Virus record (IMG/VR): IMGVR_UViG_3300046534_001193
Location: 1 to 64,000 of that record
DNA: 64,000 nt
Direction: 5' to 3' (one strand)
DNA from: a virus
The notes beneath the pieces are model-generated. The model searched no databases. It saw only the letters and a list, made by a program, of their open reading frames with translations, and had not been told where the DNA came from. Position numbers and translations under genes: made by a program. Positions 20,254 to 63,762 of this stretch are shown piece after piece; position 1 is the first letter of the stretch; every line of letters begins with the position of its first letter.

Positions 20254-21717
20254 ATGCCTACTAAGCCATCCAAAGCCAATCCGATAGTTCTCCCGAAGTT
20301 GACTAGCACAGTCAAGTCGAGAACTGTCGAGTCGAAAACGCCTAAAGATGCGTTAATCCCTAATCAGCAGAACCATTACTCTACCCGTGATCCAAAGACG
20401 TTACGCGCGCAAGGGTTAGTTACCGAAGCAATCAGGGTTCTGTCGAAAGAGAACGGCAATTTAAGTACCTCTGTTTACAACATGGTGCAGGTAGCTGACT
20501 CGGGGTGGAAAGTGGCAGCTTACTTGCCTAGCACTTCCGAATTCTCAGAAGAAGGCACGATGCTGGCTAAGAACGTGATAGCTTCGATGGATACCCTTCA
20601 TGACTATACTGAGGGTTTCGGTAGGAAGCGGCCTATCCCTATGGTTGTCCAAACGTTGCTAAGGGAAAACATTCTTACAGCTGGCTGTGCTATCGAGTTA
20701 GTTTTAGACGAAGGTTTGTATCCTGACCGGCTCCAAGTAGTTGACTATTCAACTTTAAAGTGGGCGTCGGATGGTAAAGGGTCTAGGTATCCTGTTCAGA
20801 CAGGGTTTGAGAGCGGCGCATTTGGTGGCGACCCAGGTATCGATATCCCACTTGATATTGCGACTTTCTATGCCGAGACTTTGCACTTGGAAGCTGACAC
20901 AGCCTACGGCACATCAATACTTCGGGCTGCCTTAGATTCGTCATTTGCGTCTTCTGAATTTATAGCCGACATGCGCAGAAGCTTGTTTAAGTCAGGCCAC
21001 TCGCGGCTAACTGCTACCTTAGACACAGCTCGAATTGCGGCAACGGCTACGGCGGAAGTAAAAAAAGATCCGGTTAAACTGGCGACGTATTTGAACACAG
21101 TCAAAGGTGAAGTGGAAACAGCCTTAGCAGATATGTCGCCGGAAGACTCAGTTGTGGCTTTTGATACTGTCGAGTTCAAGACTGAGGACATAGGCGGCAC
21201 AAAGTCGGATTACACCGGTTTGCTGGCGGCCATAAACAACCAAGAAGCGACGGCTCTTAAGACTCCGCCTTCTATACTTGGCATGCGCTCGGCGGGCTCA
21301 CAGAGCTTGTCTAATTCAGAAACCCTCATATTCCTTAAAGGTGCAGCAGCGATACAGACGCCGGTCGAGTCAATACTTAGCCGAGCTTTGACGACTGCAG
21401 TGAGACTTTACGGTAGTGACGTCTACGTCAAGTTTAAGTTCAATCCAATAGATCTTCGGCCTGAGTCTGAGCTAGAAGCTTTCCACACTATGAAGGAAAC
21501 TCGCTTTCTTACGCGTTTGAGTCTTGGCATTATCACCGATGCACAGTTTTGTTACGAGATGGATATTCCGTATAATCCTGCGGCGCCTAAGCTGTCAGGA
21601 ACTAACTTTCAAGCTAGCGGTGGCAGTCAGTCTACGCAGACTACTCGCGGTCCTATGGAAGACAATTTGCAGCCAGGCAGCGACATACCGCGCAATGGCG
21701 GAGGTAGCAGCCAATGA
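20254..21717 (+). CDS. portal protein
   Basis: 487 aa between TerL and protease; P..ILG motif. Confidence 0.8.
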   Translation: MPTKPSKANPIVLPKLTSTVKSRTVESKTPKDALIPNQQNHYSTRDPKTLRAQGLVTEAIRVLSKENGNLSTSVYNMVQVADSGWKVAAYLPSTSEFSEEGTMLAKNVIASMDTLHDYTEGFGRKRPIPMVVQTLLRENILTAGCAIELVLDEGLYPDRLQVVDYSTLKWASDGKGSRYPVQTGFESGAFGGDPGIDIPLDIATFYAETLHLEADTAYGTSILRAALDSSFASSEFIADMRRSLFKSGHSRLTATLDTARIAATATAEVKKDPVKLATYLNTVKGEVETALADMSPEDSVVAFDTVEFKTEDIGGTKSDYTGLLAAINNQEATALKTPPSILGMRSAGSQSLSNSETLIFLKGAAAIQTPVESILSRALTTAVRLYGSDVYVKFKFNPIDLRPESELEAFHTMKETRFLTRLSLGIITDAQFCYEMDIPYNPAAPKLSGTNFQASGGSQSTQTTRGPMEDNLQPGSDIPRNGGGSSQ

Positions 21718-21759: not shown

Positions 21760-23274
21760 ATGCTTAACCAATTTAACCACAATAACGCCTCTTTCTGGCT
21801 TGGCACTCCCGCCAGTTACGAGACAGTTATCTCTGCCCAAGCAAAAATTCAAGAGCATTCAGCGCGAGGCCATTACGACGAAGACGAAGATAAAATGTCT
21901 TCACCGATCTTGTCTATATCTGAAGGTATAGCAACAGTAATGGTTCACGGCTCTCTGACTTCTGAAGACAGCTTTTACAACCAGATGTTCGGCATTACTT
22001 CTTACAACGAGATTAGAAACGCTATTATAGAAGCCGTTGGCTCTATGGAAGTCAGTCGTATTGTTTTGGACATTGACTCACCTGGCGGATCAGCCAAAGG
22101 TATCGATGACTTAGGCGACTTCATAAAGTTTGCTAGTGCACGCTTACCAATTGTAGCGCACGTATCGGGCGAGGCTTTATCGGCAGCTTGCTGGATAGCG
22201 ACTTCTTGTGACAGCATCACTGGTTCACGTATGTCGCAGCATGGCAGCATAGGCGTTATAGCAGTATTGCAAGAAATTACTAAGATGGCGGAAGACCAAG
22301 GTGTTAAATTCCACGTTTTTCGTGCGGGCAAGTACAAGGCGATCGGAAGTCCTTACGAAGAATTGACTGATGAGTTTCGAGAGATTATACAAGCTCAAGT
22401 CGACACTATCGAAGGCTTCTTTTTAGATGCTATTTCAGATAATAGGGGCATCCCTCGCGGTTCGGTCAAAGCCCGAGTCGGCGAAGGTTTAACGTTTTTT
22501 GCTGCAGAAGCAGTGGACAAGGGGCTATTAGACGAAGTATTATCCATACAGGACTTGCTTACTAGACTAATAAGCCTGTCAAATTCAAACCCGAGAGGGC
22601 TAAATGCATCTACCGAGGAAACATCAATGGCCACTAAAGCCTTAACTGCAAAAGCTTCAGCTGCATTGGCCGCTGGTGCATCCGATGAAGAAATCAACGC
22701 ACTTCTTTCCGCTGCTAGCGAAGAAGAACTTACTGCTGAGCAGATCGCCGCTAATCTGGCTGCTGCCAAGTTAGAAGGTGAAGGCGCAGGTGAAGAACTT
22801 ACTGCTGAGCAGATCGCCGCTAATCTGGTCGTCGAAGGTAAAGGCGTAGAACTTACCGCTGAAGAGTTGGAAATTAAAGCTGCGGCAGATCTAGCCGCAG
22901 CTCCCACCGCTCCAGTCGTAGATCATTTGGTCACTTATCTTAAAGAAGAAAACCAAACACTCCGGCAAAAAATTACAGGCTTAGAGTCTGACAGTTTGAA
23001 ACTTGCGGAACTAAATACAATGATTCCTCAGCTGAAAGCTGCGCTTGGCGAATACGTCTCAGGCATGTCGGTCCGCTTAGGTGGATCGCATTTGGACACT
23101 TCTTCGTTGGAACTTCCTTCTCTGATGGCGCAATACACTAGCACTCGAACGGCTATGTTAAAGCGTTATCCTGTCGGTGGACAAGCCAACGTCGACGATT
23201 CAGAGTCAGATAGCTCTGATGCTGACACTGCAACCGTTACTTACATGCGTTCTGTTAAACAGAACACTATCTAA
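21760..23274 (+). CDS. S49 (SppA-like) prohead protease with C-terminal scaffold
   Basis: LDIDSPGG, ALSAACWIA, GSIGV, AGKYK; acidic Ala-rich C-terminus. Confidence 0.9.
   Translation: MLNQFNHNNASFWLGTPASYETVISAQAKIQEHSARGHYDEDEDKMSSPILSISEGIATVMVHGSLTSEDSFYNQMFGITSYNEIRNAIIEAVGSMEVSRIVLDIDSPGGSAKGIDDLGDFIKFASARLPIVAHVSGEALSAACWIATSCDSITGSRMSQHGSIGVIAVLQEITKMAEDQGVKFHVFRAGKYKAIGSPYEELTDEFREIIQAQVDTIEGFFLDAISDNRGIPRGSVKARVGEGLTFFAAEAVDKGLLDEVLSIQDLLTRLISLSNSNPRGLNASTEETSMATKALTAKASAALAAGASDEEINALLSAASEEELTAEQIAANLAAAKLEGEGAGEELTAEQIAANLVVEGKGVELTAEELEIKAAADLAAAPTAPVVDHLVTYLKEENQTLRQKITGLESDSLKLAELNTMIPQLKAALGEYVSGMSVRLGGSHLDTSSLELPSLMAQYTSTRTAMLKRYPVGGQANVDDSESDSSDADTATVTYMRSVKQNTI
22627..23274 (+). 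CDS. nested in-frame scaffolding protein (lambda Nu3-like)
   Basis: GAGGA RBS before in-frame ATG 22627; 69-bp-period repeat EELTAEQIAANL. Confidence 0.6.
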   Translation: MATKALTAKASAALAAGASDEEINALLSAASEEELTAEQIAANLAAAKLEGEGAGEELTAEQIAANLVVEGKGVELTAEELEIKAAADLAAAPTAPVVDHLVTYLKEENQTLRQKITGLESDSLKLAELNTMIPQLKAALGEYVSGMSVRLGGSHLDTSSLELPSLMAQYTSTRTAMLKRYPVGGQANVDDSESDSSDADTATVTYMRSVKQNTI

Positions 23275-23306: not shown

Positions 23307-23771
23307 ATGGGCACTACAATTCAAGAACGGACAATGACAGTCGATACCAAATTTATGGGTATCGTTACTGATAAGCTGGGCACTACTGCGGGCGATTACA
23401 CTGATAAAGAGCTAGGCAAAGGCGTCAAGATGGCAGCCAACGCTTACGTACCTGTGGTTGCAGGCGACGAAATCGAAGGCATTGTTAATACCGTTGAGCC
23501 TGGCACTAAAAATTCTGGTTACAACTGGGGCGGCGTACAAACTACAGGCCGCGCAGAAGCTACTGTTGGTGCCAACCAAGTTACCACTATCAACATTGGA
23601 AATTTTGTCCTCAATGACACTCCTATAGATGCTGGCACTGCCGGCTTAATCCAGGTTTACGACGAGGATGGCGATGGTGCTGCTGCACCGACTAAGTTCC
23701 TTTGGCGCGTTATTAGAATTCTTACTGGCACGGGTATTGCCGGTGATAAAGTTCTGATCGAACGCGCTTAA
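23307..23771 (+). CDS. head decoration protein
   Basis: 154 aa between protease and capsid; beta-rich. Confidence 0.65.
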   Translation: MGTTIQERTMTVDTKFMGIVTDKLGTTAGDYTDKELGKGVKMAANAYVPVVAGDEIEGIVNTVEPGTKNSGYNWGGVQTTGRAEATVGANQVTTINIGNFVLNDTPIDAGTAGLIQVYDEDGDGAAAPTKFLWRVIRILTGTGIAGDKVLIERA

Positions 23772-23808: not shown

Positions 23809-24999
23809 ATGTCATACGATACAAAATTTAAATTTACAGACCTTAACGGCAAACTACAGGAAGGCGGAATTACTGTCCAATCTTACGCAGAGGCTGCCGC
23901 TAAAGGGTTGAGTTTGTCCCAGCACATGGCTCAGAAGTTCCCGACCGACGAAACTAAGTATGGGCCTATTTTGGCACAAGCCATGGCTTCAATTGGTTTA
24001 AATGTACGTCCTGACAATGTTACCGGTGTTCCTTCCACCAAGTTGTCTAGCGCTTTTTCAATGAATCTGGGTGCAATTACGTCTCCTGACGGCACCGGAA
24101 ATGGCACACCTGCGGGGCGTTTGTTCTTTCCTGAGGTAATCCTGCAAAGTATTGCAAAGGAATTGACGGAAGACAAAGGTGACTTTTTTGCTGGCTACGA
24201 AAGTTTGCTGAGTGGCAGCGAGAGCGTTAACGCGCCTGAGTTTAAGCGGGTGCGAATTGACAACACTGCACCTGAAGCTTCGGCGTCTATGGCAACATCT
24301 CAGTTGGCTGAACCTTCCGTCATGGTAAAAGTGACAGCAGCTGATACTACCACACCGATTCCGACCAAAGGTATTGGCTTGCTAGTTTCTGACCAGGCTT
24401 TACAGCATACCAGCTTCGATCTTGTCAACACGATTATGATGGCTCAAGCTCGAGGCGAGCGAATTCGCATGGTAGAAGACCAGCTTGACGACGTGTTCAA
24501 CGGTAACACTGATTTGGCCGGCATGGCTGCTTTACCTACGTTCAATGCCGACACTTTGGATGCCACTATCGCTGCTGACGGTGTTCTTACCCAGAAAGCG
24601 TGGATTCACTTTCTCCGCCAGAATTATCAGAAGATGACAGTGACAAACATCGTTTGTACGCTTAACACTGCGCTAGCGATTGAAGGCCGTACCAATAAGC
24701 CTACCAACGTGGTGGATGATCCTAACAGTCCTCGTATTGACAGCTTATTCAACATCGACAATCTCGGCATTACTGCTCCAAGAGTTTTCTTGGTAGGCAC
24801 AAACGTTTTACCTGATAACCGAATGGTTGGTTTGGATAACGCTTACGCCTTACGTCGGTACATTAACGTCTCGGCTTCTTACGAAGCAATCGAGTCGTTC
24901 GTAATTCGTCGTGCTACAGCTTTTCGAGTAGACCATGGTGAGGCGTTAACGCGTCTTTTTGACGACGCCTTTACTGTCATGGATTTGACTGACACTTAA
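23809..24999 (+). CDS. major capsid protein
   Basis: 396 aa, position, strong RBS, followed by terminator. Confidence 0.85.
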   Translation: MSYDTKFKFTDLNGKLQEGGITVQSYAEAAAKGLSLSQHMAQKFPTDETKYGPILAQAMASIGLNVRPDNVTGVPSTKLSSAFSMNLGAITSPDGTGNGTPAGRLFFPEVILQSIAKELTEDKGDFFAGYESLLSGSESVNAPEFKRVRIDNTAPEASASMATSQLAEPSVMVKVTAADTTTPIPTKGIGLLVSDQALQHTSFDLVNTIMMAQARGERIRMVEDQLDDVFNGNTDLAGMAALPTFNADTLDATIAADGVLTQKAWIHFLRQNYQKMTVTNIVCTLNTALAIEGRTNKPTNVVDDPNSPRIDSLFNIDNLGITAPRVFLVGTNVLPDNRMVGLDNAYALRRYINVSASYEAIESFVIRRATAFRVDHGEALTRLFDDAFTVMDLTDT

Positions 25000-25021
25000 T
25001 AGAAAGTTTTATTGGTGTTTT

Positions 25022-25047
25022 AAAAAGCCGCCTTCGGGCGGCTTTTT
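25022..25047 (+). terminator. rho-independent terminator (bidirectional)
   Basis: AAAAAGCCGCC-TTCG-GGCGGCTTTTT. Confidence 0.92.
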
Positions 25048-25135
25048 ATTGTCAACAGCCGATAAAATAAAAAGTATATTTGTAAACAAGTTAGGTGTAG
25101 AGTAGAGATCTAATCGAGACAACCAAGGTGTATTT

Positions 25136-25342
25136 ATGAAACCAGTTAGCCTAGCAGAAAAATTTTCAGCGGAATCGCCAGATGACCCACGCTTCTTACG
25201 CCGACAAATTAAATCCTCAAGCTCTTATCCAGAGATTGAAAAATTCGTAGTGCGTCCTGCCAAAGTAGTTATGCTTGAACAGGACGAGTCTTTGAAGGGC
25301 GTGTTTGACGCTGCCTTTACTCTCATGCCTTTTAATGACTGA
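25136..25342 (+). CDS. 68-aa diverged copy of major capsid protein C-terminus
   Basis: Ungapped alignment to last ~50 aa of MCP; own AAGGTG RBS and ATG. Confidence 0.75.
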   Translation: MKPVSLAEKFSAESPDDPRFLRRQIKSSSSYPEIEKFVVRPAKVVMLEQDESLKGVFDAAFTLMPFND

Positions 25343-25458
25343 CACTTAACAGCGGCTTTTTATTGTCAACAAGTCAATGGACATTAACTTGTTAAGCGGT
25401 TAGTATTAGTGAGCTTATGTTCAAACACAGGCCTAACCAATTAACCAGGATAAATAAT

Positions 25459-25773
25459 ATGTCGCGTTCTAAGCCTAATAAAGGGACTACCCTTAGCCTA
25501 GCCAAGGTGGAAAAAGAAGAAGCCGAAGCAGCTGACGCTAGGGCAGTTTTGGAAAAAGAAGAAGGTGAAGCTGCCGCAGCCAGAGCGGCTTTTGAAAAAG
25601 CTAAAGCAGCCAACACAATAAAAACAGTCACTTTATTGCTCGGCTCGCAAATAACTGACCCAGGCACTGGTGTAATTTTAGTAAAAAACAAAGCAGTAAT
25701 AGTTCCAGAAATTTCTAAATGGGTTAGAATGCAAGCTGGATTCACACCTCCTTACTTAACTTTTACGGAGTAA
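25459..25773 (+). CDS. hypothetical virion-associated protein
   Basis: ATG 25459 behind AGGA; EKEE repeat. Confidence 0.7.
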   Translation: MSRSKPNKGTTLSLAKVEKEEAEAADARAVLEKEEGEAAAARAAFEKAKAANTIKTVTLLLGSQITDPGTGVILVKNKAVIVPEISKWVRMQAGFTPPYLTFTE

Positions 25774-30273: not shown

Positions 30274-33200
30274 ATGGCTTTTGACATTAATCTTAATACC
30301 CGCATTGCACGGGCGCAAGTTATAGGACTTAACAGGTCTATAGTCAATCTTGCCCGTGCAGCCGATAAATCTTCTGTCAAAATGCAAGCAGCTTTAGGTG
30401 GAGGTTTTGGCGGCACCGCGCAGCTCAAGGGTATTGAGACCGCAGTATATAGCGTTAAGAACAGCTTGATATCTATGGCTGCTTCACAGCGTATGACTGC
30501 CAATGCCGCTGTCTCTGGACAAACTCGGACACGTATTGCTGTTGAAGAGACTCTTTTGTCTACAGCCAAGGCTGCCACTGAGACAATAAAAGGTAAAAAC
30601 TTAATTAGCAATGCCTACATAAAAGAAGGCGCTATAATAGAAGCCAGCAATAACGCAAAAAAATTGTCTGAGGCTAGAGTTCAAACTGAGCAAGCAAAAA
30701 CTGCGGCTGAAACTATAAAAGGTAAAAACTTAACTACTGGGGCCTACATAAGAGAAGGCTCTATAATAGAAGCTAGCAATAACGCAAAAAGATTGTCTGA
30801 GGCTAGAGTAGGGACCCAGGAGGCAAAAACTGCTACTGAAACTATAAAAGGTAAAAACTTAACTACTGGAGCCTACATAAAAGAAGGCGCTATAATAGAA
30901 GCCAGCAATAACGCAAAAAGATTGTCTGAGGCTAGGGTGCAAACTCAGCAAGCAAAAACTGCTACTGAAACTGTCAGAGCTAAACGTATAGAGACAGCTG
31001 CAGCAGCAGCTAATGCTGCTGCAGCACAAGCCGCCGCCGCTAGGATAATAGCCGCTCAAAGAAGAACTGACGCCGCACTTTTGTCTAGTCAAACAAGATC
31101 TATGGCTGCCACTACAGTTGCCGGATTTAACAGCGCCAACCAAGGTGCGGCAGCTCTACGCTCTACCTTAGGCGCCCTAGGTGCCAGCTTTGGTATATTC
31201 TCAGCAAGCACTCTGCTTGTAGCGACTAGCACATTTATGCTGGTTAGAGCATTTAAAAGCACTGTCACTGTCGGCGCCGAACTTGAAAACTCTATGCAAA
31301 GAGTTTATGCGGTTACCGGATCTCTTGGCCAAATAGCAGGAGAAGTTACACCTGCAATGCAGATGCTTAGTTCTGCTGTTAGAGACGTTGCTAAAGGCAC
31401 CATATTTACTTCTACAGAAGTTGCGCAAGGTGCGATCAGATTTGCCCAAGCAGGTTTTAGTGCGGCTAACACCGCTAGTGCTTTGAATGCTACTGCCGCG
31501 CTTGCCACTATCGGTATGACTGATATGGGGCAAGCCGCCAATACGGTTACCAGCATACTTAACTCTTTTGGATTAGAGGCTACAGCACTGCAAGGTGTGG
31601 TCGATACGATGGCCGTAGCAGTAACAGGCTCTATGTTAAACATAACTCAGCTGAGCAGTGCCTTGAGCTACATAGGCCCCCTGGCTAAGGAGACCAACAC
31701 CAGCTTTACAGAAACCGTTATCATACTCGAGCTTATGGCGGATGCAGGCGTGAAGGCGTCCAAAGCGGGTACGTCATTAAGACGCGGCATGGTCAACTTG
31801 CTAAACCCTACCAGTCGTCAGATGGGTGTTCTTAGAGAACTTAACGTTAGCACCAATAAAGCGTCAGGCGAAATGCGGTCAATGCTAGACATAGCCAAAG
31901 ACTTGGCTACCGAAGGTATTACCCCTGCCCAGCTTTCTCTGCTATTCGGAGCCCGAGCAGTTGCCGCATGGACCCAAGTTATTAATGAAGCCAATGGCAA
32001 AATGATAACTTTTATCGATGCACAAAAAGACATAGCAGGGACATCTTTGGTTCTGCGTAGACAGCTAGAGCAAAACTTGACCGATCAATTCAAGCTGCTA
32101 GTTTCCGCTGTACAAGAAGTTCAGCAAGTTCTTTTTGAACAGTTTGGACCTAGGCTGACTGAGTTAGTTGTGGGCTTTAAAGACTGGGTTACCGAAATAG
32201 GTAATAGCAGGGAAGAGCTAGTTGCTATGGCAACTGCGGCTTATGACACTGCAAGGACTTTAGCTGCAGGAGGTGCAATAGTTGCAGCCGCCGCTTTTGC
32301 TTTCAGTAAATATAAACTAGCCGTAGGCACTGCCGCAGTAACTGCCGCCGTTGGCGGGCTTAATAAAGCACTGTTGGTTACAAAAATTCTTTTACTCGGA
32401 ATTGTTAAGAATCCGATTATAGCCACTTTGTTGACAGCATCCGCTGTGTTTGCTTACTTCCGAAGGTCAGTCGAGGATTCCTCAGGCGCCACTCAAGAGC
32501 AGATAGAGGCTACTAAAGAGCTAGTTCAATCTCAAAAAGATTTAGCTGATGCTTCTGAAAAAGCTGGGCTGGCAGTAACTCGTATAGGGTATCTGGAAGC
32601 TGCCGAAGGTTTACGTTTAGCTACCCAAGCTACGGTAGCTAAAAAGAGGGCTGTCAATGATTTAGCCGAGGCTCAAGTGGTAGCCGCCAATAAAGAGAGT
32701 AAAGCAATTGCTGACCTAACTGCTAGAGCTATGAGGGGTGGGATGCCTTTAGGCATGGTACAGCCTAGAGTATTTACGCCTGCTGACGACTTTGTTGTCA
32801 CCCAGCAAACAGTCAGGCAGCAAGCCATCGCCGAAACTAACTTAGCCCTAGAGAAACAACTAGAGCTTACTTTCGGCGGGCGTGAAGCAACACTAGCTGG
32901 AAGAATGCAAAACCTTCAATCGGGCCGCCAAAGAAATCTTCCTAATGCTGCAAACGCACAACGTTTTCAGCAAATGGCTCAAGATTCGGTTCCCGACGGT
33001 GGAATGCCACAGCAAAGGGCAGCCAGAATCGCGGCCGAAGTTAACGCTCTAACTAAAGACGCCGCAAGCAATCTTATTTTGTTTGACCGTGAAATAAAGA
33101 AAGTTACAGAATCTACTTACAATTTGCGAGTAGAGAGAATGAAAGTTTCTGGTGTTTACTTAGACTCTCCAGAACAGCGGAAGGCCCACACTAAAGCGAT

Positions 33201-39200: not shown

Positions 39201-39951
39201 AGACTTTTCTAGAGACGTTAGTTGGGATGAAGGTAGTGGCTGGAGCATAGGCGGTGGAGACGCAGACCGAGGCAGTGGTGAAAGCACCAACGGCATTCTT
39301 ATTCAAACAATAGATATAGTTGCGGGAACACCTTACATAATTAGCTATGACAGAACTTATATTTCAGGGGACGGCAGAACAACTTTCTACTCTGAGTTTG
39401 TAACTGATGGGAGTTTTATTAACTTAGGAGATTATGACGACACTACGGAAGAAACAGTTACTGTTACAGATGTTTTTACGCCCGCTTATTCAGGTTCTAT
39501 GCTTTTAAGGCTTAGTGCTATTTCTGACTTCACAGGTTCAATAGACAACATAGAAGTAATACCGCAGTACCTAAGTTACGCAACCCCACCGCCTTACGCC
39601 CAGTGGCCAGGCCGGTTTAAAGTGACTGCTCAGCCTTATAATTTTAAGTTTGGGATAGCCCAAGGTTTTACTCGAGGCGTGATATCTGAGTTAAATTTTA
39701 AAGTGGATGCGCTCGACATCACCGAAACATTGGCGGATGTAGCGATAGACTCTGGCGGCACTCGGCTGTCTTTGACTAAAACTTACTCTGTGATAAAATC
39801 AGTTAATTTAACTTTACAAGATGACGGCGGCACAGCAGCTACTGTCAAGGTCATGGATAAAAACGCCACTACAGGCCCATTAATCCAAGGCTACGATTCA
39901 TCAGACTCCGCGACCGGCTGCAATGTCGACGCTACTATAATAGGCTACTAA
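36259..39951 (+). CDS. central tail fibre / tip attachment protein (gpJ-like) with FnIII and two CBM-like domains
   Basis: VIYGRR, SNNPA, YDVRVRARN, IKAVDRTGNYS; duplicated NGDF domains. Confidence 0.9.
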   Translation: MLGLIALGGYAGATAAVGLGALTFGAVAGALLGAAFVVSFVDLITPEAEAEIKGVLTTRKGAVQPLQVIYGRREVAGGQIFLASSDREIAADPPVYEIRTVIREGGDSVSQESVNVFAGTAAYTLPNAFRWVVYQLADGDVPIEGLESIYINDELLVGSKYEDWVSYRFTDGSHTSQPFTDLAAAVPGWTSDHLILGTVGIAIRMEWNKDIFEGVPKFTFVLKGTKLLDLDALPTQTRRYSNNPAEAQFDYLINPIYGKGLSPVDGVDLSVASFIAARDYANDPVIAYSGGPQHTRMSSNAVLTAGSTVMDNMRQLLVGCRGTLPYINGVFNLMIERDYAFTEYKDGEGADYSEFFDFNEDNIIGSWKIKAGDIATRYNQVKVIFPNEAKHFESDFVTVYSNTFRAEDGRLLEKTFTLTGVTNAYQATDTANVIMRKSRQQIDASFMSTPRARNVTAGEIVTITHATPSWSLKKFRVSSIVLLATGNCSVTVAEHEPTVYDLTVPNEIATSPDTDFPDPTIVASLAAPTLVSDETVLKTGKDGTLTPQLKITWVAPIDPFVVGYDVQIKDMSSTDLVWQTVASPNSIDSVTVTISGVEEGIAYDVRVRARNSGGWVGAWATTENHTIIGQTSLPSNVPNFYISGSILSWEAITDSDRAGYVIRFQPGVNRSWGDANPAHDGIVTESPHDLSIDIFGQNTLMIKAVDRTGNYSETPASIITDFGNPLISNVFEEVDDHALGFTGTITGAAVVSGDLKADSQTPVIWGNALSNMYTSSSAAMYVAVQYAKLTYLRTITPSFSASGNDLVIESTIAGTNSQITYRPEAPDLMWESLDTQPMWQDEPISIVVNGDFAIDHGWTQQSGWTIADGKASRSSGESSNTSIQQTINIVSGTAYTVSYDRTYISGNGQTLFFSEFLTDGSSSTLAPYTSTTQETVTVTGTFTPTYSGAMVLKLFGIGDFEGSVDNVVVKTATGSTIVDNGDFSRDVSWDEGSGWSIGGGDADRGSGESTNGILIQTIDIVAGTPYIISYDRTYISGDGRTTFYSEFVTDGSFINLGDYDDTTEETVTVTDVFTPAYSGSMLLRLSAISDFTGSIDNIEVIPQYLSYATPPPYAQWPGRFKVTAQPYNFKFGIAQGFTRGVISELNFKVDALDITETLADVAIDSGGTRLSLTKTYSVIKSVNLTLQDDGGTAATVKVMDKNATTGPLIQGYDSSDSATGCNVDATIIGY

Positions 39952-39952
39952 G

Positions 39953-40729
39953 ATGACAGCTCTACCAGCAAAAACAGCATTTACAGCTGAAAACCTGACT
40001 GAGGGTGATTTCAGGGCCGCGATGGATAACCTTCGAGATTACTTGTCTGAGCGAGTGCAAGGCCTTAAATCTAATACGGCATTGTCTGATGCAGCCGCAA
40101 CATTAACAGCTGCTCAACTAGTTGGTGGGGAGTTCACTATAACTCCAACAGTAGCGAGGACTCAGACAACAGACACGGCAGTCAATATCATAGCAGCGAT
40201 GGCAGGTAGCGCGGATGGCAGTAGCTTTGAGTTTACAGTTGTTAATCTAGCTGATTTTGCTGTGACTATTGCACTGGGAACCGGTGTAACTTTAGTTGGG
40301 GATATGGCTATTAATATTGGTGCGGCTACTTTTAGAGTACGTAGGCTAACTTCTACAACAGTTAGTGTTACGCGTCTTGAAAGTCAATTTACTGCAGCTG
40401 ATAACACTAAGCTGGATAGTTTAGGTTCCCAAAACGTCAAACTCAATACCAAGCTTATTGATATAGGTGATTGGAACATGAACACAACATACGAGTTTGA
40501 GGTTACTCACGGACTAACGCTAAATAAAATAAGAGGGATGTCTGTACTAATTAGAAATGACGCTGATACCAACTACACTCTTCTTGCTATTAACGGGGTT
40601 ACAGCATGCTACGCAGATGCCACAGAGATTACTCTTAACAGAGTTAATTCAGGAGCGTTTGACACTTCATTCTATGAAAGCCCGCCATCAGGAAATAGAG
40701 GCTGGATAACCATCCAATACGTAGATTAA
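39953..40729 (+). CDS. tail fibre/receptor-binding protein 1
   Basis: Follows gpJ; N-terminal anchor shared with next gene. Confidence 0.7.
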   Translation: MTALPAKTAFTAENLTEGDFRAAMDNLRDYLSERVQGLKSNTALSDAAATLTAAQLVGGEFTITPTVARTQTTDTAVNIIAAMAGSADGSSFEFTVVNLADFAVTIALGTGVTLVGDMAINIGAATFRVRRLTSTTVSVTRLESQFTAADNTKLDSLGSQNVKLNTKLIDIGDWNMNTTYEFEVTHGLTLNKIRGMSVLIRNDADTNYTLLAINGVTACYADATEITLNRVNSGAFDTSFYESPPSGNRGWITIQYVD

Positions 40730-40755
40730 AACCCAATTATAAATAGGCCATTAGA

Positions 40756-41628
40756 ATGACAGCTCTACCAGCAAAAACATCATTTACAGACGCAGGCGTA
40801 ACCGAAGGCACGTTTAAAACCGCGATGAATAACCTTCGAGATTATTTGTCTGAGTCTATAGGGACTTCGGGAGGAGCGATTACGCCGAGTGTTGTTAGAA
40901 CCGCATTGGCAGCAGCGACAGACGCTAACGTACTGACCGACTACCAAAGTTCTAAACTAGGATCTCTTACAGGCCGAAATTTACTGATAGGTAATTTCTT
41001 TGTAAATCAAGAAGAGGTATCAGGATCGGTTGTTTTAAGCGCAGGCGATTACGGGCACGATATGTTTAAGGGCGGAGCAAGCGGTTGCTCTTACACTTTT
41101 TCCACGACCAACGGTGTTCCCATGACGACAATATCAGCAGGGTCACTGGTTCAAGTCGTCGAAGCGGTAAACATTGCGGCTGGCGATTACATTTTAAGTC
41201 ACGTAGGCACAGCCCAAGTCCGAATCGACGGCGGTAGCTACGACGATTCTGGTGAGGTTACGGCTACGTTAGACGGTTCAGCAAACGCTACTGTTGAGTG
41301 GGGCACTGGCACGTTGTCGTTGCCTCAACTAGAGCTAGGCACTGTAGTTACCGCATTCGATAGGCGGAACATCGGTGTGGAGCTGACACTCTGTAAGCGG
41401 TATTTTCAAGACTATTCTGGGGCCTTTACACTTTCAGCGACTTCTAGCGCCGCAAACATTAATAAGCCTATTCTAGAAGTCGAAATGAGATCAACGCCTA
41501 GCATAACACAGACAACTTCGGGGTCAGGCGGGTCTTGGGTGGTAACGACAAATAAATCTTTAAGGCAGTCGGGCGTCCATTCAGCAGACTCAACAACAAC
41601 TGTATTGAAATTAGACGCGAGGTTATAA
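40756..41628 (+). CDS. tail fibre/receptor-binding protein 2
   Basis: RNLLIGNF.VNQ, QLELG...ELTLCKRYF motifs of phage fibre domains. Confidence 0.75.
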   Translation: MTALPAKTSFTDAGVTEGTFKTAMNNLRDYLSESIGTSGGAITPSVVRTALAAATDANVLTDYQSSKLGSLTGRNLLIGNFFVNQEEVSGSVVLSAGDYGHDMFKGGASGCSYTFSTTNGVPMTTISAGSLVQVVEAVNIAAGDYILSHVGTAQVRIDGGSYDDSGEVTATLDGSANATVEWGTGTLSLPQLELGTVVTAFDRRNIGVELTLCKRYFQDYSGAFTLSATSSAANINKPILEVEMRSTPSITQTTSGSGGSWVVTTNKSLRQSGVHSADSTTTVLKLDARL

Positions 41629-56884: not shown

Positions 56885-57351
56885 CAAGTTATCTCGGACG
56901 CGTCTATAATTGTATCTTTAATAGTTTTTATGTCGCCTTGTGCGAGCAAATAAGCATTCTTCGGAAACCTGCCACCTTTTGCTCTGGCTACAGCAATGTG
57001 GAGCCCGTCCCAAATATCCACCCTTCCAGTATCGTAGTGGCAGAACATGACCCAAGAAGGCAAGCCAGCCCTGTGCCACATACGGTGAAAAGCGGCTTGG
57101 TCCTTGGACCAGAGACTAGAGAAGCCGCTACTCAAAGAGTCATACTTCGCAGAACACTTAGCTTCAATAAGGATTGCAAGACCGTCAATCGCTAGCAGGA
57201 AGTCGCCTGGCTGGGCGGGCAGTATATTTCTGGCCGCCCGCGTGTCGGGATATCTGTGGAAAGTCGATTTTCTTTCCGACTCTGTCTCTTTCAGTGCGTC
57301 TTGGATTTTGCCTTCGAACCATTTACCTATGTCGTTGCTTTGATTAGTCAT
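56881..57351 (-). CDS. PD-(D/E)xK nuclease, RecU-like Holliday junction resolvase
   Basis: GKWFE, PGDF, IEAK, downstream Q. Confidence 0.75.
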   Translation of the reverse strand: MTNQSNDIGKWFEGKIQDALKETESERKSTFHRYPDTRAARNILPAQPGDFLLAIDGLAILIEAKCSAKYDSLSSGFSSLWSKDQAAFHRMWHRAGLPSWVMFCHYDTGRVDIWDGLHIAVARAKGGRFPKNAYLLAQGDIKTIKDTIIDASEITC

Positions 57352-57583
57352 CGGCCTTCCACACAAGTTTTTCCATAAATTTAACAGCGAAATAGGCGTA
57401 GCGTGTAGGGTTAACCGCCCCTGTAAAAAGCAATACTACCGTGGTGTCGGTTATTTCTACAATCTTACAGAGCTTTGGGCAAGTGTTAATCGTTATCGGC
57501 TCTATCTGTACCAACCAATAATCACCTAACCCTACATCTGCAAATTCGGGCGGGTACTTGTGTATTCTGGTTTTCTTTGTCAT
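57344..57583 (-). CDS. small beta protein, paralog A
   Basis: Aligns with 57629-57859; same leader. Confidence 0.75.
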   Translation of the reverse strand: MTKKTRIHKYPPEFADVGLGDYWLVQIEPITINTCPKLCKIVEITDTTVVLLFTGAVNPTRYAYFAVKFMEKLVWKADD

Positions 57584-57628
57584 TACTATTCTCCAATTTT
57601 AATAAAATTAGTAAGGTTGGGCTGCCCA

Positions 57629-57859
57629 CTACATCCTGAGCCTTTCAATAAATCTAAGTGATACAAAAGTGTGCTTAGTATTGTTATTCGAACCTGCAAA
57701 AAACAAGACTAAAGTGTTGCCAGTTTTTTCTACAATTAAACACTTCTTTGGGGGAGTCTCACTTGTTATCGGTGCTACTGGAATTTCCTGAATTATCCAA
57801 ACCTGTCCAACTTCAATTTCAGATAGCTCTGGCGATTGATCGGGTATTCTAGTTGACAT
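57629..57859 (-). CDS. small beta protein, paralog B
   Basis: Aligns with 57344-57583. Confidence 0.75.
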   Translation of the reverse strand: MSTRIPDQSPELSEIEVGQVWIIQEIPVAPITSETPPKKCLIVEKTGNTLVLFFAGSNNNTKHTFVSLRFIERLRM

Positions 57860-57884
57860 TACTATTCTCCAATCCTAATAAAAG

Positions 57885-63644: not shown

Positions 63645-63762
63645 GGTATTTCTCCTAGTAGTAATTGTAAAAGTAAGTTTTAACAGTAATTGCCCCTTAA
63701 TCAAGGGGTGACGCAAGTGTAAACAAGTTAAATATGTAATGCAACTTGTTTACAAATTCTTT

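Follow-up and report, generated by a model that had tools for sequence, protein, structure and literature searches.

A small optional gene, probably born by tandem duplication, carries a diverged copy of the major capsid protein C-terminus in an uncultured sea-ice phage

In T4-type phages, indels and the shuffling of modules are mediated by PeSL cassettes, which are composite motifs of promoter and terminator (Arbiol et al. 2010, PMC2839356; Comeau et al. 2014, PMC4122927). In Bodo saltans virus, ankyrin-repeat open reading frames (ORFs) carry fragments of essential viral genes and were proposed to act as decoys (Deeg et al. 2018, PMC5871332). On the host side, the CapRel-SJ46 system is triggered by direct binding of new major capsid protein (MCP) (Zhang et al. 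2022, PMC9712102). Here we describe a mini-gene that lies directly behind the MCP gene of a phage and whose residues 16-68 are a diverged copy of the MCP C-terminus (Table 1). The stretch analysed, called the window below, comprises the first 64 kb (64,000 nt) of the IMG/VR virus record IMGVR_UViG_3300046534_001193, which has a full length of 81,991 bp and is rated complete. The phage is an uncultured sea-ice phage: all nine listed sequencing runs that contain the stretch are labelled ice metagenome, one TARA scaffold also contains it, and no RNA dataset is listed among the runs holding it. The best account of the mini-gene, to which we give a probability of roughly 55%, is that of a duplication-born, optional and probably expressed chimeric junction ORF.

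Chimeric new genes can form at the junctions of tandem duplications, and surveys of such genes reportedly exist for Drosophila and rice. As in these genes, the adjacent copies described here lie in the same order, both parents are intact, and the 5' signals and head would come from the downstream parent and the body from the upstream parent. The present case is unusual in being a phage gene with a body taken from a capsid gene and in the age of its copies (62% nucleotide identity), and its 5' parentage is suggested by a weak protein similarity. Phage T4 offers two further points of reference, since its vertex protein gp24 is a paralogue of the MCP gp23 and the Lit protease acts with the Gol peptide of gp23. 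Like gp24, the mini-gene appears as a capsid gene duplicate kept next to its parent; unlike gp24, which has a full-length structural HK97 fold, it covers 53 of 396 residues and lacks invariant ones. CapRel-SJ46 and Lit provide the premise of the decoy idea weighed below, namely that parts of an HK97-fold MCP can be a pattern sensed by the host; they are context and not systems to which the mini-gene belongs.

With PeSL cassettes, the locus shares a small non-essential ORF bounded by composite repeats of terminator and regulatory motif, a motif found at many intergenic sites of the genome (14 copies here), and close relatives of which some have the cassette and others lack it, with the break exactly at the repeat (here seen in one contig, from run X4). 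It differs from them in its host genome, a non-T4 phage of about 82 kb with a portal/S49 protease/HK97 MCP module, in lying in the late structural module and not in a hyperplastic early region, in a motif that is known here from sequence alone and does not, in our reading, follow the sigma-70 consensus, and in its cargo, the copied end of the neighbouring capsid gene. Bodo saltans virus likewise has extra small genes that hold pieces of its own essential genes and for which mimicry or a decoy role was proposed. It is, however, a giant eukaryotic virus in which the fragments are attached to ankyrin repeats and belong to expanded terminal gene families, whereas the mini-gene joins a bare 53-residue capsid end to a 15-residue head; in both cases the decoy role is a proposal only. 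Limited word searches of the open-access literature, which are not proof of absence, found no phage-encoded capsid-fragment decoy and no gene for a capsid C-terminal fragment.

Table 1. Coordinates of the mini-gene, its flanks and neighbouring features (window positions unless stated otherwise).
Feature	Position	Strand	Details
Portal gene	20254-21717		PHROG 3753; late head module
S49-type protease/scaffold gene	21760-23274		Late head module
154-aa ORF	23307-23771		Between protease/scaffold gene and MCP gene; no Pfam or PHROG family
MCP gene	23809-24999	+	396 aa, HK97 fold; parent of the copied segment
Source block	24835-24993	+	MCP residues 343-395
MCP intrinsic terminator hairpin	25021-25048	+	12-bp perfect stem (25021-25032/25037-25048), 4-nt loop, T-run
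Left 20-nt direct repeat	25038-25057	+	Terminator 3' arm, T-run, first 9 nt of the TTGTCAACAAGT motif
Optional cassette	25058-25371	+	314 bp between 20-nt repeats spaced 314 nt; carries the mini-gene
Recurrent motif TTGT[AC]AACAAGT, mini-gene copy	25080-25091	+	44 nt before mini-gene ATG; kept in the TARA relative
Shine-Dalgarno (SD)-like AAGGTG	25125-25130	+	5 nt before mini-gene ATG; GAGGTG in the TARA relative
Mini-gene	25136-25342	+	68 codons; residues 16-68 are a diverged copy of MCP 343-395
Copy of MCP 3' flank	25336-25371	+	14-nt repeat 25336-25349 and right 20-nt repeat 25352-25371
Second motif copy	25363-25374	+	Overlaps right 20-nt repeat; ahead of downstream gene
Downstream gene	25459-25773	+	104 aa, Glu/Ala-rich, no family
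Connector-type genes	Beyond downstream gene		Late head module
Motif sites, window	5676, 11231, 12111, 15921, 25080, 25363, 42078, 56878, 63717, 63744
Motif sites, rest of genome	64753, 72253, 78359, 79003

The gapless alignment of the mini-gene product to the MCP end, reported in a preliminary description of this DNA, was reproduced. Pairwise comparison of the mini protein with MCP residues 343-395 showed 23 of 53 identical amino acids (aa) and 31 of 53 positives (E = 2e-12), and the two coding blocks are identical at 99 of 159 nucleotides (62%). A hidden Markov model (HMM) of 116 MCP homologues matched only the mini-gene frame between positions 25000 and 25420 (19.6 bits; E = 1e-8 in a small search), aligning mini residues 16-66 with profile positions 344-394 of 396. 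A search of the phage's own 81,991-bp genome with the mini protein revealed two matches, itself and the MCP end. The statement that many conserved residues use different codons was correct for about one third of them: 8 of the 23 identical residues have a different codon and 15 the same one. A longer decayed capsid remnant upstream of the ATG (in a frame with a stop at 25103 and, by eye, an IDNLG-like stretch) was considered and rejected, the HMM match starting at residue 16.

The parent gene is a well-supported MCP. It matched the major head protein family PHROG 3922 (E = 2.5e-47), scored just below the cut-off for Pfam PF25209, and in tblastn was 33-35% identical to proteins annotated as major head proteins in Pseudomonas phage PMBT3 and Vibrio phage SHOU24; its AlphaFold model (predicted local distance difference test, pLDDT, 81) matched phage capsids including HK97 in Foldseek with a probability of 1.00. 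In this model the source block forms a strand (348-353), a helix (359-366) and two strands (371-382 and 388-392), and the mini protein keeps the hydrophobic pattern of this strand-helix-strand-strand end. Residues D343, R373 and D375 are invariant in 78 aligned MCPs, and A347, A356, Y358, A360, E362 and A387 are nearly so. The mini protein retains D343, Y358, E362 and A387 and carries the substitutions R373 to M, D375 to E, A356 to S or V and A360 to E. Having lost family-invariant residues, it cannot be a capsid subunit. It had no match in Pfam or PHROG, so the full-length MCP family profile does not recognise it.

The DNA behind the MCP gene is duplicated as well, as the preliminary description had noted. 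A 14-nt repeat is exact at 24986-24999 and 25336-25349, and a 20-nt repeat is exact at 25038-25057 and 25352-25371 (two matches at up to three mismatches, 0.01 expected). The mini-gene also lies behind the MCP terminator as described, the perfect stem of which folds with -27.6 kcal/mol (z -5.3), a value reached by none of 200 shuffles; in Rfam, this hairpin gave the only matches, all of them below threshold and none at the gathering score. The second copy of the flank lacks the 36 nt that form the 5' arm and loop of the terminator and therefore has no hairpin. The fold of 25300-25385 was no better than that of shuffles (z 0.36), and the same applied to RNA folds of 25340-25460 and 25050-25140. 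Dyad sites were found on both sides of the mini-gene, again in agreement with the earlier account, as a 9-nt inverted repeat (25042-25050/25066-25074) and a 26-nt near-palindrome (25368-25393), at the head of which the second motif copy lies. The ribosome-binding site and ATG predicted for it are present, and with the motif copy upstream of them the mini-gene stands alone with its own start signals.

The motif TTGT[AC]AACAAGT occurs at 10 sites in the window against 0.86 expected, a number reached in none of 100 shuffles, and at 14 sites in the genome. Its copies are mostly intergenic and, as read from their contexts, often lie just behind hairpin-like sequences ending in CTGAC; those at 63717 and 63744 face each other. 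The A-rich flank of the mini-gene copy is also found at the sites near 63755 and 64753. A consensus promoter scan gave nearby matches of only 9/12, and in our reading the motif is not accompanied by a -10 element at the spacing of sigma-70 promoters. It does not resemble the sigma-70 consensus and probably serves as a promoter or operator specific to the phage.

The order MCP end, terminator flank, motif, SD sequence, ATG and head codons is thus present twice, in the same orientation and with both parent genes intact, and a tandem duplication with a chimeric junction ORF is the simplest account of this arrangement. The two intergenic stretches are also of similar length, 136 and 116 nt, to which the 36-nt deletion has to be added. 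The proposed duplication would be old and some 350-390 bp long; it would have begun at MCP codon 343 and ended near codon 26 of the downstream gene, leaving the full MCP and downstream genes intact and creating a new ORF between them. This ORF would have taken its motif, SD sequence, ATG and first ~15 codons from the downstream gene and its body from the last 53 MCP codons with their 3' flank. Free of capsid duty, the copy would have diverged quickly and lost family-invariant residues, and recombination between the identical 20-bp repeats could delete or move the cassette. Transcription of the mini-gene, whether it starts at its own motif or continues from the MCP gene past the terminator, would be likely, and translation would probably yield a small accessory protein on which purifying selection acts weakly.

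Residues 1-15 of the mini protein are unlike the MCP and show a resemblance to the N-terminus of the downstream gene product (its first 26 residues compared with the first 16 of the mini protein). When mini residues 1-20 were compared with downstream residues 1-30, only 3, 19 or 60 of 2000 shuffles scored as well, depending on gap cost, which corresponds to p values of 0.0015-0.03; two downstream-gene sequences of the clade were compared. The mini-gene head and the downstream gene also have an in-frame 10-mer in common. For the body, likeness to the mini consensus tracks overall MCP identity (r 0.74 over 116 MCPs): MCPs with at least 64% overall identity match it at 19-22 of 53 positions and those with 35-46% at 9-10 of 53. 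The copy itself comes closest to MCPs of its own clade, with 21-23 of 53 matching residues. The mini protein differs from the MCPs of its own clade at about 30 positions, whereas those MCPs differ from the resident block at no more than about 15. Being far more diverged and having lost invariant residues, the segment was not lifted recently from a working capsid gene.

Synonymous differences place the duplication in time. The mini-gene and the resident MCP gene differ by 0.63, the mini-gene and the MCP genes of the relatives L003 and L004 by 0.80-0.90, and either the mini-gene or the resident MCP gene and those of L003 and L004 by 0.77-0.90. The duplication therefore appears to have followed the split from L003 and L004; a reservation is that two copies within a genome have a common base composition. 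Between the window and the TARA relative the difference is 0.19-0.43, which in turn places it before the radiation of the mini-gene-bearing clade.

Nine distinct variants of the mini protein were found, eight of 68 aa (79-87% identical to that of the window) and one of 66 aa. Six of them were paired, on the assumption that contigs of matching length are the same, with contigs carrying MCPs of the 90% cluster of the window MCP. The arrangement is no assembly artefact, since it recurs on an independent scaffold from TARA and on a Logan contig from a different run; a contig of run X6 covers 25084-25634 without gaps and with 42 differences. On the TARA scaffold (about 90% nucleotide identity) the mini-gene is present in the 66-aa form, a 41-nt deletion having taken away its final codons together with the stop and the 14-nt repeat; the last seven residues, including the motif most like the MCP, are lost. 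In run X3, 130 other letters replace 73 at 25282-25354, the 3' end of the mini-gene, and this allele may be a less deleted form still holding the terminator arm. In a contig of run X4, position 25057 runs into a 15-mer that is found in the window only at 25372-25386, which is a mini-less form; the junction is seen in this single contig with its 15-letter overhang. Zero depth over 25084-25347 in runs X4 and X5 is not evidence by itself. The junction without the cassette and the 3'-end changes of the TARA and X3 alleles show that the cassette is optional among close relatives and that its 3' end is unstable.

In both more distant relatives, L003 and L004 (MCPs 67-68% identical), the MCP gene and terminator are followed directly by the downstream gene; the mini-gene is absent, and their sequences match it only at their own MCP ends. 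To the question raised in the preliminary description, whether the fragment is absent or decayed in relatives, the answer is divided: it is missing from these two and from one close relative and truncated in another, and it is intact in eight variants. None of the viral contigs searched encodes the mini protein (99 pattern matches, none confirmed). A search of 1.84 billion protein representatives gave three matches at E <= 0.001, one true 68-aa relative and two long multi-stretch proteins (3331 and 1147 aa). Among known phages, no DNA match to the sequence was found, and tblastn gave no match for the mini protein. A 435-aa gene call from ENA (P0140, corresponding to window positions 23809-25120) reads through the TAG TAG stops of the MCP gene, with Q in place of each, and on through the terminator, which adds 39 residues to the MCP. 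It looks like a gene call under a TAG-reading code and not like a real fusion, and the other nine members of its cluster have 396 aa.

Selection on the mini-gene was assessed from the DNA of the window and the TARA relative over codons 1-61 and from the protein variants. The two DNA sequences differ at 18 nucleotides (6/2/10 by codon position), of which 8 changes are synonymous and 10 nonsynonymous (omega 0.33; p 0.033 in a Fisher test of the two classes of change). In the next two genes omega is 0.15 and 0.10. Nonsynonymous sites of the mini-gene changed much less often (10/142) than synonymous sites of the flanking genes (45/134; p 2e-8, assuming one shared history), and the 6 differences in the final 18 codons of the MCP gene are all synonymous. 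Among the nine mini proteins, 5 of 23 MCP-matching positions vary against 16 of 30 others (p 0.026), or 3 of 21 against 18 of 32 when majority states are used (p 0.0036), and residues 1-11 are invariant in all nine. On the six paired contigs the mean amino-acid distance is 0.137 for the mini protein and 0.045 for the MCP, a rate about three times higher; the mini protein also changes far faster than its parent block, in which any two of the six MCPs differ at 0-1 of 53 positions. Neutrality was rejected at the point estimate of the age of the copy (joint P 0.005, t 0.69). None of the best 40 of 193 read differences in the sequencing runs lies inside the mini-gene. Taken as a whole, the tests for purifying selection are suggestive to borderline and the mini-gene looks weakly preserved; we consider it about as likely as not, or slightly more likely, that the mini-gene is translated and its protein weakly constrained.

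The main rival to a duplication-born, expressed mini-gene is a non-functional relic of the same duplication, with an ORF that is open by chance and by its short length and is on its way out, and with a conservation that reflects recent common ancestry or DNA-level signals. We regard this as a tentative but serious alternative. A neutral copy that has drifted to 43% identity keeps its frame open in 22-34% of simulations, and survival of the open frame was accordingly dropped as proof of selection. The DNA comparison is thin, with a single relative, and its simulated p value for omega varies from 0.03 to 0.09 with transition bias; the dN/dS check proposed in the preliminary description, which covers window and TARA only, thus gives constraint of borderline significance. 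Compared with local noncoding and synonymous sites, the mini-gene gave p 0.125, and neutrality was not rejected at the lower age bound (0.12, t 0.45). The mini-gene is absent in one close relative (run X4), loses its most MCP-like end in the TARA allele and has a replaced 3' end in run X3, and the protein variants come from gene calls, a source biased to intact ORFs and expected to miss broken copies. The searches gave neither a family nor a fold for the mini protein: modelled alone it gave no confident fold (pLDDT 52, predicted template modelling score 0.15), and the structure Atlas held the same low-confidence model and no usable feature match. Two further points weigh against the proposed origin itself. 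At the DNA level, 25058-25180 showed no significant likeness to 25372-25530 (274 of 500 shuffles scored as well), and flanks identical at 36 of 37 nt beside a coding block with 62% identity do not fit a single old duplication, so that later gene conversion or exchange at the repeats would be needed.

A relic would, on the other hand, hardly be expected to show the bias by codon position and the omega value given above, nor slow sites that coincide with the MCP-like sites (p 0.004-0.03). The variants differ mostly by conservative substitutions, and their head does not vary. The comparison with flanking synonymous sites speaks in the same direction, under its assumption of shared history, and the synonymous difference between copy and parent, larger than that between window and TARA relative, indicates that the segment outlasted the radiation of the clade in spite of 20-bp repeats through which it could be deleted. 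A capsid decoy or mimic, imitating the C-terminal element of the MCP and soaking up a host sensor or modulating capsid assembly of the phage itself or of a co-infecting phage, appears unlikely. It would agree with the fact that the hydrophobic and aromatic positions in common with the MCP are those kept among variants and with start signals of its own placed immediately behind the late gene that is most strongly expressed; the direct triggering of CapRel-SJ46 by capsid proteins (PMC9712102) and the role proposed for fragment-bearing giant-virus genes (PMC5871332) lend it plausibility. The TARA allele without the most MCP-like end and the dispensability of the mini-gene in at least one close relative speak against it, as does the position of the copied element inside the MCP fold in the model, with no obvious surface patch. 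The wider proposition that the mini protein is a selected mimic of the strand-helix-strand-strand end, acting as a decoy or as an assembly modulator or poison against related phages, and represents an undescribed recurrent class of capsid-fragment mini-genes, is doubtful, though somewhat less so. A scar of capsid gene replacement, the other origin put forward in the preliminary description, would mean that the present MCP took the place of an older and different capsid allele, of which the 3' end is left as the fragment. It accounts for a fragment directly after the MCP gene with a 3' flank in common, and phage structural modules do recombine. The fragment is, however, closest to the MCPs of its own clade and has lost residues invariant in all 78 aligned MCPs; upstream of residue 16 there is no MCP likeness, though the family is well conserved there, and this part carries the genome's own regulatory motif and a head that resembles the downstream-gene start. 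The search of the 1.84 billion representatives did not yield a longer protein with a C-terminus nearer to the fragment (55 candidates in the longer-protein search, none scored). We consider this origin highly improbable and do not retain it.

The genes around the MCP gene form a late head module. The 154-aa ORF in front of it is conserved in L003 and L004 and, from its position, may encode a decoration or head-stabilising protein. The downstream gene contains a 42-nt tandem repeat (25508-25591, 76% identical) that encodes two EKEE..EA..AR units and shows several small indels between relatives. Repeated coding sequences were also observed elsewhere in the genome. A 310-aa frame on the minus strand (genome positions 63766-64695) is 55% identical over 294 residues (E = 1e-100) to residues 524-810 of a 937-aa frame on the same strand (67251-70061), from which it lies 3 kb away, the pair lying partly beyond the window; a motif copy is located about 46 nt before this shorter paralogue. 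The adjacent genes 39944-40726 and 40747-41625 on the plus strand have their first 38 residues in common (66% identity), two tandem frames of ~80 aa on the minus strand (57347-57598 and 57632-57874) are 42% identical, and tandem repeats are present at 30604-31155 on the minus strand. Duplication thus seems to be a frequent mode of change in this genome.

If the mini-gene is functional, a single step would have given the phage a new small protein out of its most abundant structural gene, with the tandem duplication equipping a piece of the capsid gene with a start codon, a ribosome site and a promoter-like motif, and the locus would be a tractable case for phages that carry mimics of their own capsid protein. 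Should the mimic reading be true, its mechanism of birth would be visible in a duplication junction that supplies ready-made start signals. Natural alleles with and without the mini-gene, and with differing 3' ends, coexist in polar and sea-ice samples, and the mini-less form is a natural knockout allele from the same environment. If the mini-gene is only a relic, its terminator and motif repeats are still documented as break points of cassette gain and loss in the late module of a non-T4 phage, and it would show how slowly such a remnant decays. Its origin is a matter of ordinary genome mechanics, and a preserved capsid-derived microprotein with natural knockouts would be a useful test case.

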